This document shows positions 152 to 34,329 of a stretch of DNA of 64,000 nt, in pieces. Each line of letters starts with the position of its first letter. Positions within the stretch are counted from its first letter, which is position 1. Source of the DNA: Styela clava. Its lineage: Eukaryota. Both the position numbers and the translations under genes were made by a program. The notes under the pieces are model-generated. The model saw only the letters and a program-made list of their open reading frames with translations, was not told the origin of the DNA and did no database searches. The DNA lies in NCBI RefSeq assembly GCF_964204865.1, contig NC_135264.1, forward strand, positions 12,524,001 to 12,588,000. Reading direction: 5' to 3'.

Positions 152-1432
152 ATGAGACTGTTTACGCTGGTCATTTTCGCCACATGTGTTGTGCTGGGTT
201 CGGCGCTTCCTCCACCATGCATGACGAAAAAACCACCGTGAGTATCAAAGACTAACATGTCCAATTGTTTCGAAAGTTGCGTAATTATTTTATTTGTTAT
301 TATTACAAATTTTTCAATTTTTTCACGAGAAGAAAATGTTGTTTACGGATAGCTGATCAAAGTGTTGATATGCATATTCACAAAATAATATTAAATTTAT
401 CATTTCAAACCCCAAATTTTTTACTAAAAATTAAATTAGAAAAATTTTAAAATTATGCAAGTTTTAAATAATTTGTGTTTGATTGGAAACTAAACAATTG
501 TGTAACTTACTATCTTTCCTTGCGTTATGCTTTTGCGCACTTTGTGTTTGATTATTTTATATGGAAATAATTGCATAGTAGTTATAAAATAAATTATTGC
601 GTAATATTTCAGATCAGAGAACCCCATGAAATGCACACATGTCCCACAGTCGCTGTTTTGCCTTGTTAGACCATGTACTTTTACGGCAATAGAAGGATTG
701 ACATTAATAAACCAAAAATTAAAGAGTGTAAAATTAGCGAAAAAAATCAGAGTAACAGTCGATGAATGCAAGTAAGTATAGTTTGATTTTTTAAGGTGTA
801 TACCAAGAAAAATAGTATCACGTTTTATTATTTTTGTTTCTGAACCAAAATTGTTTAAATTTTTTTTAAATTTATATATTGCCAAATTAGTCCAGAACGA
901 ATTTCTTATTTTATTTTTGAAGAATAATAATATTATCATTTAAAAAAGTTTAATGAGTCGGCCATGGCGAAGTAACTAACATTGTAATCAACTACTGACT
1001 ATTTCAGAATAATAAAAAACATTTTTCTATGTTCCCACATAACAGAAAACCGGGTCAGAAATGCTCTGGGTATCGTTGCCCATGTAGGTGCTACAATAAG
1101 GGAAAATGGATCTGGGAAGTCGGTATGGTAACAGTGAAAATTAATGGAAACTGGGTATCTGTGCCGAAAGCAGTCAAACTCAGGGTAATTATCTAATATT
1201 GCCATTAGGCTTTCTAGATGTATTTGTGTAGACTACACGTGTATTTTAAATCTATAAAAGCAAAGTAATGTAGGCCTTAAGCAATTAAAAAGGTGATGTA
1301 GAATAGAAATGAAAAAAGAAATTATGGAATAAGTTGTGTTTTGATAGATTAGCACCAATAGTAACTAAAAATACTACTATTGCATTTTTATAGGTGCCAG
1401 GGGGTTGCACGTGCACTGAACCTGATGACTAG
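152..1432 (+). CDS. Secreted cysteine-rich putative cystine-knot protein, paralog A1 (140 aa, 4 exons)
   Basis: Exons 152-237, 613-771, 1046-1184, 1394-1432; all GT-AG, phases 2,2,0, open frame. Protein MRLFTLVIFATCVVLGSA-LPPPCMTKKPPSENPMKCTHVPQSLFCLVRPCTFTAIEGLTLINQKLKSVKLAKKIRVTVDECKKPGQKCSGYRCPCRCYNKGKWIWEVGMVTVKINGNWVSVPKAVKLRVPGGCTCTEPDD. Signal peptide, 11 mature Cys, AATAAA downstream. Confidence 0.9.
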
Positions 1433-2039
1433 AATCGATGGCAGATGAAGAAGTTGAAATAAAGAAAATTGAAATTTTTATTCGTAATTAAATTAATTCT
1501 ATTTTGAGCGCCATCAATACTGGAGCAATATAAACAAATACAAGCAAATGTGTGCATTTCAAAGTTGCGTTTTATTTTCATATTGAAGCATTTCTATAAA
1601 ATCCTTCATCAACAATCAGGATTTTCTGTTTATATTTTGACAATATATATACATCTTATAGTGCAGGGGTTGAATTTTTTTTAGTATAAGAGCCGCATGC
1701 AGCAATTCAGAAATATGGAAGAACCGCATAATTTTTCAAATTATTAATATTGAAGTTCATTGAATCATTTTCTATTGTAACTGGTACATTGGTCCTAATT
1801 TGGGAGATGCGCTGTTGTGTAGTGCGACGCGAAACCGGCGTTTGGGCTAATACTCGCTTCGTGTTGTTGAGATTCAAGACTGCGACAACATCAGCAATAT
1901 TTTTTTCACAAAATCACGATCAGAGTATAGAAATTTAGCACGATAAATATTCCATGATATACCAAAATTAGATTCAGTTGTTGCATCGAATTTCTTGCCA
2001 AATGATATCATAAATTTCTGCCATGCGGGGTTAATTTTG

Positions 2040-2256
2040 GGCGAGAGGATTGCTGGAGTCCTCGTCTCCGTAGGGTGCAGTGGTTACGGCTTCCTCCACC
2101 ACGCATCTGGAAACAAATAACTGGCTAACTAATCTCATATTCGACATTGACTGAAACCGGTTACTAACCGGTCGATCGGTCGTAGTTCGCCATATGATGA
2201 AGCCGTCGCGTCGGCTGTCCTGTTCCCCGAGATAAATATGCGAATCCTATCTATCA
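2040..2256 (+). mobile_element. 5'-truncated SINE copy
   Basis: GC-richer segment gcgagaggattgctgg...gataaatatgcgaatcctatctatc, homologous to the fuller copy at 18844-19140. Also duplicated at about 16352-16567. Confidence 0.65.
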
Positions 2257-31204: not shown

Positions 31205-33154
31205 ATTCGATGGCTGATGAAGCAGTTAAGATAAAAAAAAAAATTGAAATTTTTATTCGTAATTATTAATTTCTATTCGGAGCGGCATTATTTCTGGAGC
31301 AATATAAACAAATACAAGCAAATATGTGCATTTCGAAGTTGAGTTTTCTTTTCATATTGAAGCATTTCTATGAAATCCTTCATCAACAATCAGGAATTTA
31401 TGTTTATATTTTGACCATTTATATGTATCTTATATGTCACAAAAATAAATTAACACAAAATATATCGAGATGTAAAAACTTGGCATTATGATGGTAAAAC
31501 AAAAATAAAATTTGTATACCCGCAAAAATTACTCATGTACAAATGTACTACGAAGTATTACGTTGGTTTATTAAATAAATTTTATAATATAGATTATAGA
31601 AGTTCCATATTACTAGGAAATTAGTCAAATAATCTCCTCTTTCAATGTCATCAAAATTGTTGCCTATGTCAAACGGAAAACCAATTATAGGTCGATAAAA
31701 GCCTGGCTGTTCAAAATAATATCCAACAGGGGGAATCTTATATAAGAAAGGTTATCCTTGGAAATGTATGGATAGAAATCACAAAGCATGGCGTAAAATC
31801 TGGTAAAAATAATTGAATATTTATGAAATTCAATTAAGATATGAATTAGTAAACACCCTTTCATTAGAAAAGATTATCATCTTTTATTTAAACAACACTT
31901 ATATATTAAAAATAAGCATTTAAAAATATTGAAAGCAATGGTACTAGACACTTCAAGTTTGCACTGTGTTGAAAACAGTGTGCGAAAGTAATTTTAACAA
32001 GTTAATACAAGTGCTAGAATGAGACACCACATTGAATAAGATAGAATAAATATTGGCGCAAAGAAAAATAATTCAGGAGGGGTATGGCATATTTATACGA
32101 GAGAGAATCAACATTGGACAAGATACTATATGACATTTAGAATTTTCTTTAGCGATAATTAATTAGGATGTCCATAACGTTACTTGGAATTTTCAAGTCT
32201 AATCAGGAATGAACACGGACTGAAATATGTACCGGTATTGTCGTCTAAACTAAACAATGTCCCAATAACGATTTGACAATAAATACATAAAAAATTTAAT
32301 CTTGAAATGGCTCGTGTATTTCAATATTACCCAACATATATATATAGTTCAATAACGATTAAAACTGCTTTATTAATTGCAATTAATTTAATTGCTCAAT
32401 TCAATCGCATGTTAATGGAGTTGTCATTAGAAAAAGATTCAAATTTAACAATGCATGTCTGTGTTGAATAACCCACAATTTCCTAAACAAAAAATGAAAA
32501 AAATCATAAATTTGAAACATTTGAATGTCGTGATATTGTACCTAACGACGTGTGCGTTCTAAGTTAAATATATCATGTTTGAACTACACATATTTAACAA
32601 CAATTGCGGATTACTAGGTTAGAGATAAAATGTCAACTGGATTAGATATAACAAATCAAACTGTTTTACATATTTTTTCCAACATACTCAGACCGCATAA
32701 GTGGGAAAATGGCTAACACTTTATTACGGAAAACTCATCGTATAAATAAGACTATTATTATTAAACGGCATGAAAAAATGAAATCTAATTAAAACAGCAA
32801 AATAACAGTATGAATCGTTTTTGAAATTAATCGCAGCCCTTTTTATTAAAATCACAAATAGTCTACATAATTGAATAAAAAAATGGAGGATCAGGTAAAT
32901 ATAAAAACAAATATTGGGAAAAAGGGAAAGGTCCTTTCAGAACACGAATTGTTTATTACCCTTGAATTATTATTTTTGCTCTCCTCAGAGCGTTTTATAC
33001 AAAAAAATACATTCTCTCATATTATAATATATAAAAAAAAATCATAGTCAAGAATATACCTTACGTCATCGTGATTTGCCTTTCTTGTTGATTCATGTCT
33101 ATAAAAGTAAGCGAATGAGGTAAAGTATTCCGATGATCTATTGCTCGTAGCATA

Positions 33155-34329
33155 ATGAGAATTGTTCTGCTGCTGTGTATTGCTGCGTGTGCGGCAGTTT
33201 GCGTTACGGGTTCGTCTCGAAAGCTTCCATCTCTGCCGCCATGTTCTGTGAAAAGTTTACCGTAAGTATAAGATATATAGAGTATAAGAGGATAATAAAA
33301 CGTCAAGGTTTTTTTTCTTTCATATTTTTTGATGGCGACTTATAAATAACAAATGATTGACATGGTACGTTTTCCTGCTTTCAAACGTGATTTTTTCTAG
33401 TTTAAAAAATCAAAATGTTAATTTATAACCTTTTAGGTCGAAAAGACCAAAATCATGCCAAAAGGACAAAAAGTCGAAATGCGAAGAGAAAAAATGCTAT
33501 TTTAATATTAAAAAAGGGATACTCACTGAGAACGGAAAATCAAAAGCAGTTAATATTGTGAAAGAATTTATAGTAAATGGAAGCGAATGCGAGTAAGAAA
33601 TGTAAAAATATATTATGTGAGTGTGCGTTTGTGTGACTGTGTGTGTATGTGTGAACTCATTAGGTTTGACATAAAAATGATTTTCAAATGGCTTTAAATA
33701 CGGAAAAGCATAAATACAATTCATGAACAAATCCTAAATTACTGAATTTTATTTCAAGTAAACAACACTGGAATGGTCTAATAAAGCGATGCAGCAGTGG
33801 AATAATTCCATGCAGATGTCGAAACTGGGGTGTTAAGACATGGATAAAAGCTTGGATTAGTGAGAAGAAAGATGGGAAGTGGATGTCTGTTAAAAAACCG
33901 GTTAAAGTAAATGTAAGTATGTTGCAAGTCCTTGCTTTTTGAATAGAACGTGTTGTACACATTCTAGTTTTTTTTTGTTTATATATATATACTAACATGT
34001 ATGGTTTGTGCTTTGATTTTTTGAGGTACTGACTTAATATATTTTTAATATATTATTTAATTGGTTTTATTTAATTTATCCTTAGGTTTATTCACCGCTT
34101 ATGTTTGATCCATCTTCAAAAACTAACACGATCGACCCACAAAGTAATACTATATGAGTCATACTTTTAGCTTACAATACGCGGCAATTTGGAATAGACC
34201 AAATAACGTAATGTGCTGGAATAATCCGGATTGGTTATTCAATAAAACTGATCTGATTATAAATTTCTTTCCCAGATTCCAGCTGGATGCATGTGCGCTG
34301 AGCAGAACATCCTAACAAGGAGTTTGTAA
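33155..34329 (+). CDS. Cystine-knot paralog B3 (156 aa), diverged
   Basis: Exons 33155-33261, 33437-33592, 33759-33912, 34276-34329. Open frame, 10 Cys kept, 4-aa insertions in exon 1 and in the hairpin loop (ISEKKDGKW). Confidence 0.88.

Follow-up and report, generated by a model that had tools for sequence, protein, structure and literature searches.

A tandem family of cationic cysteine-rich genes in Styela clava with a predicted cystine-knot fold and probable positive selection at exposed sites

The locus and its gene models

The stretch analysed here, called the window throughout, comprises 64,000 nt of the Styela clava genome (GCF_964204865.1, NC_135264.1:12,524,001-12,588,000, forward strand), and all coordinates below are window positions. 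Its first part (1-35 kb) is built of nested duplications, as seen by self-comparison, and carries eight loci of four exons each, arranged A1 B1 C1 A2 B2 C2 A3 B3, which encode small cysteine-rich proteins and in which positive selection very probably acts on some exposed sites. The gene models were built by hand, 19 of them across the family, and those of the eight loci are the following.

152..1432, forward strand: gene A1; exons 152-237, 613-771, 1046-1184, 1394-1432; 140 aa
3919..5114, forward strand: gene B1; exons 3919-4013, 4183-4338, 4488-4629, 5061-5114; 148 aa
10194..11495, forward strand: gene C1; exons 10194-10303, 10406-10552, 10796-10940, 11451-11495; 148 aa
14463..15744, forward strand: gene A2; coding sequence identical to that of A1
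20247..21442, forward strand: gene B2; matches database protein P0004 by eye
26160..27377, forward strand: C2, a probable pseudogene; exons 2-4 at 26278-26424, 26648-26792, 27330-27377
29572..31204, forward strand: gene A3; exons 29572-29678, 30343-30501, 30782-30926, 31166-31204; 149 aa
33155..34329, forward strand: gene B3; exons 33155-33261, 33437-33592, 33759-33912, 34276-34329; 156 aa, open frame

Several of these models match, by eye, database entries named "uncharacterized protein, Styela clava", which supports the splicing: A1 corresponds to P0005, B1 to P0013, and P0001 differs from C1 at 2 of 148 residues. For A3, whose frame is open and whose intron 2 has a GC donor, and for B3, no matching database protein came back from the homolog search. 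In C2 a 201-nt deletion has removed exon 1 and with it the signal peptide, and the exon-4 acceptor is GG; C2 is therefore graded a probable pseudogene; an intact C paralog, C0, lies upstream.

The pairs A1/A2 and B1/B2 have been copied recently (intron divergence, d, of 0.001 and 0.007), the introns of A2 differing from those of A1 at 1 of 792 sites and B2 departing from B1 by one replacement and two silent changes, and A3 and B3 are older copies (d 0.225 and 0.211). The repeat unit is C-A-B, and its first occurrence, C0-A1-B1, is a mosaic in which C0 is 92% like C2 and A1 and B1 are 99% like A2 and B2. In DNA run X1, which may not be independent, read depth was followed over window positions 10000-17700 (a range without B, C2, A3 and B3) and reached 18.5 on the A2-bearing contig versus 4.5-9.5 at C1; depth is no copy number, and these values are compatible with a genuine A1/A2 duplicate. 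A 2-kb insertion at 17765-19776 separates A2 from B2 and has no counterpart between A1 and B1, and positions 13341-13597 hold a very high-copy repeat with a summed contig depth of ~129,000 in the same run.

Extent of the family

Scanning 214 kb around the window and 20 kb of contig C18 with exon profiles gave 21 exon-2 matches across ~155 kb, namely F1-F4, H, E, C0, the eight loci above, G1, G2, I, J, K and L, the last four being known as exon matches only and L being weak (E 0.47). Two further copies, H18 and E18, lie on contig C18, where the H-E gene pair is duplicated. An additional exon-2 match at -74167 was not counted (E 0.24, cysteine pattern absent). In the core, identity between subfamilies is 24-39%, and the pooled tests described below were made without F3, F4, A2, B2 and gene D.

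All relatives found so far, in searches that covered no other tunicate genome, are from Styela clava: the single candidate of one homolog search, the five matches of a single-query search against 1.84 billion representatives, and 6 of 303 candidates in a further search; among 7385 longer proteins screened there was no family member. This is weak evidence for a lineage-restricted family. The literature searched, which left most subscription journals and supplements uncovered, held no description of the Styela clava family and none of six locus identifiers.

Database versions of the same loci differ from the present models by 1-7 residues (A 3, B 1, C1 2), the largest difference being that between E18 and P0006 (7 of 156). 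The older database versions often have the residue of a paralog (2 of 2 for P0001/C1; 5 of 7 for P0006/E18, one of them at a doubtful alignment end), which suggests that derived changes of recent origin, or conversion, segregate in the species.

Codon replacement and the intron yardstick

An initial annotation of this DNA had described extreme, replacement-biased divergence between paralogs in exon 2, and its codon counts are reproduced exactly by codon alignment: 20 of 52 codons are replaced and 2 are synonymous-only in A1/A3, 20 of 48 and 0 in C1/C2, and 14 of 51 and 2 in B1/B3. C1/C0, both intact, have the same pattern (19 of 48 replaced, 0 synonymous-only), the changes private to C0 are 12 nonsynonymous and 0 synonymous, and exon 3 behaves like exon 2 in replacement. 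Two other statements of that annotation also hold, since exon 4 has no replacement (0 of 12 codons in A, 0 of 17 in B) and none of the 10 core cysteines is lost in the 14 full-length aligned rows, C2 being without the exon-1 cysteine.

Plain codon counting masks that synonymous sites make up only ~1/5 to 1/4 of all sites. The ratio of the nonsynonymous (dN) to the synonymous (dS) rate, omega, is 2.87 in exon 2 for the three pairs pooled (p=0.002); singly it is 1.75 in A (p=0.27) and 2.07 in B (p=0.23), and only C is significant (p=0.0005). Over the whole coding sequence omega is 0.92 in A, 1.12 in B, 2.03 in C1/C2 and 3.31 in C1/C0. The NG86 estimates of dN/dS are ~1.4-1.7 (A), ~1.5-1.8 (B) and 4-8 (C) for exon 2, and 0.8-0.9 (A), 0.9-1.1 (B) and 2.3-2.7 (C1/C0) for the whole gene. 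Because dS is low and noisy, exon-average dN/dS was not taken as the deciding test, and because C2 is broken, C1/C0 replaced C1/C2 in the site tests.

A codon model was written for the purpose, in which the mutation matrix is taken from the aligned introns (74% AT) and the silent and replacement rates are each scaled to the intron rate. With this intron-derived matrix omega stays above 1 (1.71, p=0.011), so that the excess proposed initially survives correction for AT-rich codons. Over exons 2+3 of A+B+C (C1/C0) the silent rate is 0.65x and the replacement rate 1.32x that of introns (p=0.012), with omega 2.04 (p=0.002); neither A alone nor B alone is significant. The T92 intron distances are those given above for A and B and 0.172 for C1/C2, with intron 2 at 0.28.

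The silent rate lies below the intron rate, and this inflates the ratio of replaced to silent codons, so that part of the pattern first described is a silent-site deficit. It is clearest in exon 2 of C0, C1 and C2, with 0-2 silent changes over ~30 silent sites and flanking introns at 0.20-0.28 from C1. Divergence between C1 and C0 is moreover uneven, being ~0.2 over exon 2-intron 2-exon 3 and ~0.1 to either side.

In the sister subfamilies F and H selection is purifying (omega 0.13). H18 and H, on the same AT-rich background, differ in exons 2+3 by 7 silent codons and no replacement, at an intron d of 0.108; in E18 versus E, 33 of 99 codons of the same exons are replaced at an intron d of 0.146.

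Site classes and variable columns

Model M2a fitted better than M1a, with twice the log-likelihood difference (2dL) at 46.2 for A+B+C and 56.4 for five pairs, against 0.0 for the H+F control. Gap padding of 5 codons and a multinucleotide term bring the pooled 2dL to 21.8 (p=2e-5), and by gene it is 13.1 in C (p=0.0015) and 8.3 in B (p=0.016).

A second test, which does not depend on multi-hit codons, used column classes (variable or conserved) set from the other six subfamilies only. In the variable columns of A+B+C, 72 of 162 codons are replaced, which corresponds to 1.55x intron 2 (p=0.0065) and an omega of 2.5 (p=0.002), and this excess persists with gap padding; for the five pairs the count is 108 of 253 (p=0.0009). 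The independent pairs E/E18 and G1/G2 agree (1.55-1.61x, p=0.057-0.017). Conserved columns are at 0.62x intron 2, and H+F are at 0.09x overall. The diversifying selection initially proposed, on a disulfide scaffold that stays fixed, is thus retained for ~15-25% of sites (the M2a class) and is not retained exon-wide.

Predicted fold and position of the replacements

The precursors are cationic proteins of 140-161 aa (isoelectric point 9.1-10.0) which are predicted to be secreted, as all full models have 17-20 hydrophobic N-terminal residues by eye. The signal region is followed by only ~5-20 residues before the first cysteine is reached, and C1 has RRRR at 24-27. Ten cysteines are invariant (C1 positions 32, 44, 52, 57, 85, 94, 101, 103, 139, 141), and A1 has 11 downstream of the signal region. 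The six cysteines and the C-terminal CxC of a cystine knot are present, the pairs 57/85 and 103/139 flanking the modelled hairpins; C57, C85, C94, C101 or C103, C139 and C141 are presumably the counterparts of knot cysteines I-VI, by comparison with the NGF pattern.

Seven full-length database proteins had no Pfam family at cut-off: none matched PF00243 (neurotrophin), whose single genomic match (E 0.44) is below cut-off and outside the cluster, PF16077 (Spaetzle) or PF06083 (IL-17). A PDB sequence search with a five-sequence profile returned chance matches only (best E 0.18). A single-sequence AlphaFold model reached a predicted local distance difference test score (pLDDT) of 42; the AF2 model made from a 19-row alignment has a mean pLDDT of 65 and contains two long hairpins, residues 55-84 and 109-134, with block pLDDT of 69-96. 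In Foldseek the first ten ranks are all neurotrophin chains (E 0.12-0.28, 12-19% identity). With VIA, 6 of 10 rows are cystine-knot proteins, with best Z of 3.2 and 3.0; 3ij2 is an NGF complex. The first Atlas matches of the database version of C1 and of A1 are NGF/Spaetzle clusters (0.91 and 0.90), and NGF/Spaetzle/IL-17 clusters lead the results. Each of these lines is below its threshold; taken together with the cysteine layout they make an NGF/Spaetzle/IL-17-type cystine-knot fold quite likely.

On this model the replacements alternate along the strands. When strand-face parity was fixed from the hydrophobicity of F1 and H only, 45 of 71 codons were replaced on the polar face (2.64x intron 2, p=3e-7) and 19 of 73 on the hydrophobic face (0.73x; polar versus hydrophobic, Fisher p=1e-5). 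Neutral simulation predicts 26.6 +/- 4.4 replacements on the polar face and none of 4000 runs reached 45, the per-gene tails being 0.079 (A), 0.004 (B) and 0.014 (C). The selected sites, which the initial annotation had suggested mapping on a structure model, thus cluster on one side of the predicted strands, the polar face, and site-specific positive selection on a minority of exposed sites is very probable, with C1/C0 giving the strongest signal.

Comparison with known cystine-knot and disulfide-rich families

With the neurotrophins (NGF, BDNF, NT-3, NT-4; PF00243) the Styela proteins share the predicted two-hairpin layout and the C-terminal CxC; they differ in having four extra cysteines, no long prodomain, ~20 copies, positive selection and no Pfam match. 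Ciona is reported to be without a neurotrophin/Trk/p75 system (PMC2772990). The Spaetzle family, in particular Daphnia Spz7/Spz8, is alike in Atlas feature matches and in the C-terminal I-P-x-G-C-x-C; the same source describes Spz7/Spz8 as a lineage-specific expansion with extra cysteines, suggested to be immune-driven (PMC2772990), and the Styela family, too, seems to be a lineage-specific expansion with extra cysteines. Unlike Spaetzle, it has no PF16077 match, and its 140-161 aa precursors leave no space for a large prodomain. As both profile and prodomain tests failed, the Styela proteins may work like neurotrophins or Spaetzle but are not filed as members of either.

IL-17 (PF06083) is also a cystine-knot cytokine, tandemly expanded in the Styela clava genome and present among the Atlas matches. 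Tunicate IL-17s are without knot cysteines 1/4 according to PMC11087794, whereas the Styela family keeps 10 cysteines, with one at each of the six candidate knot positions as mapped here. IL-17 identity was rejected, because all 32 genomic IL-17 profile matches lie outside the cluster. These matches are all above the Pfam cut-off, many are in tandem, and they are on contigs labelled C1, C2, C3, C5, C8, C10 and C19; judged by profile, this is a large IL-17 expansion.

Conotoxins, defensins and mussel CRP-I have in common with the present family invariant cysteines, an accelerated mature region and birth and death of copies, and the conserved signal exon of C and G is also a feature of hypervariable disulfide-scaffold families. 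Unlike those families, the Styela proteins are predicted to adopt a larger fold of growth-factor type and not a small inhibitor knot, their acceleration is moderate and on one face, and two subfamilies are strongly constrained.

Interpretation and rival explanations

The reading we favour, at about even chances, is that of an unnamed ascidian family of secreted, cationic NGF/Spaetzle-type knots in which the polar face of A, B and C evolves against a changing outside partner. The conserved hydrophobic strand face would pack the fold or a dimer, as in NGF, and the polar face would bind an ever-changing outside partner, e.g. a microbial surface. Duplication would provide the copies and selection would push their exposed faces apart, with unequal crossing-over and gene conversion shuffling and partly homogenising the C-A-B units and blurring the flanks; the constraint on F and H fits a fixed endogenous partner. 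A host-defence role is the leading guess, at even chances or slightly below; the hints are the cationic charge, the adjacent fibrinogen-domain (FReD) gene and the birth-and-death pattern with a pseudogene. Rather doubtful is the wider proposal that tunicates kept a neurotrophin/Spaetzle ligand lineage and that in Styela a profile-invisible array of 20-plus members was redeployed as variable host-defence proteins, with F and H as a conserved signalling core and the arms-race subfamilies A, B, C, E and G diversifying one face of the knot.

Several points weigh against the favoured reading. Exons have not, as had been expected initially, diverged more than introns on average: over the whole core, replacement is close to the intron rate, at 1.02x that of intron 2 (p=0.88) and 1.18x that of all introns taken together (p=0.13), so that "extreme" was an overstatement although the codon counts stand. 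The synonymous rate is 0.6-0.7x that of introns (0.60x intron 2, p=0.02; 0.32x in C versus intron 2). The site models compared, M1a and M2a, were run in our own pairwise code rather than codeml; A alone is not significant with the multinucleotide term (2dL 4.9, p=0.087), and intron pseudo-codon controls gave 2dL of 4.5, 1.3 and 10.6, a false positive in one of three frames (p=0.005), so that the test is somewhat liberal. Family-variable columns of B are at 0.93-1.10x only, and the strand alternation was seen first and then tested. On the structural side, the AF2 model has a predicted template modelling score of 0.49, Foldseek is sub-threshold (best E 0.12, TM-score ~0.3), the best VIA Z of 3.2 comes with a root-mean-square deviation of 6.0 over 76 residues, below threshold, and Atlas recognition is 2053 against a bar of 2300. 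The defence role, finally, is drawn from charge, the FReD neighbour, copy turnover and analogy.

Some of these points would also follow if there were no positive selection, constraint having been relaxed after duplication so that non-scaffold sites are neutral and conversion or silent-site constraint depresses dS. Core-wide dN equal to intron divergence, dS under the intron rate, the C1/C0 divergence peak, the mosaic C0-A1-B1 unit and one pseudogene member all suit this explanation, which we nevertheless consider improbable: neutrality has a ceiling of 1x intron, yet the variable columns are at 1.55x and the polar face at 2.64x; intron 2 is not a lenient yardstick for A and C; and PMC2588116 treats a local peak of divergence in the presence of conversion as itself a sign of selection. 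A somewhat better, though still unlikely, alternative is that of endogenous signalling ligands (developmental, neural or cytokine) diverging to partition among paralogous host receptors, for which the change would fall on the receptor-facing surface; the growth-factor fold is predicted, and the IL-17 matches indicate that cystine-knot signalling is expanded in this genome. Mature vertebrate NGF is however under purifying constraint, with no significant selected site (PMC13663574). The acceleration in 5 of 7 subfamily pairs, together with the differences of 1-7 residues between database versions, looks more like continuing conflict.

Gamete- or allo-recognition proteins also typically evolve fast at their surface on a cysteine scaffold, and the database versions of E18 are 7 of 156 residues apart; the figures for A, B and C1 are just 3, 1 and 2, low for an allo-determinant, and we regard such a role as very improbable. 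The least probable of the explanations considered is that of structural clotting, tunic or adhesive proteins resembling horseshoe crab coagulogen, which appears at Foldseek rank 18 (E 0.52): the low-complexity Q/P/G/Y insert of gene D and a cationic charge that could bind polysaccharide would agree with it, but the coagulogen match is weak and face-specific acceleration is unexpected for a purely structural protein.

It is in itself common for duplicated secreted cysteine-rich proteins to be under positive selection, and growth factors of the cystine-knot type, such as NGF, are as a rule tightly conserved. An unnamed predicted NGF/Spaetzle-type array in the sister group of vertebrates, with frozen and selected subfamilies side by side, would offer a built-in comparison for the repurposing of a scaffold, and the analysis names residues worth testing.

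Neighbouring features in the window

35367..37377, forward strand: FReD gene; start by eye, last exon matching PF00147 (E 3e-26)
38481..41419, reverse strand: gene D; 5 exons, 657 aa
51500-58400, forward strand: multi-exon gene with long S/N/E/K-rich exons, by eye

The FReD gene lies inside the cluster, with B3 on one side and D on the other. Gene D was placed in the family by eye, from its cysteine pattern, which is of the family type with a C-terminal VPDGCKC, and from its exon layout; a Q/P/G/Y-rich insert of ~350 aa lies within the second hairpin and is accompanied by a tail that is Q/Y-rich and then K/D-rich, and the protein could be a matrix or adhesive derivative. Positions 42500-50200, where no stop-free stretch exceeds 91 codons, contain a 4.4-kb duplicated block with nested copies of 1.3-1.4 kb and a short inverted segment.

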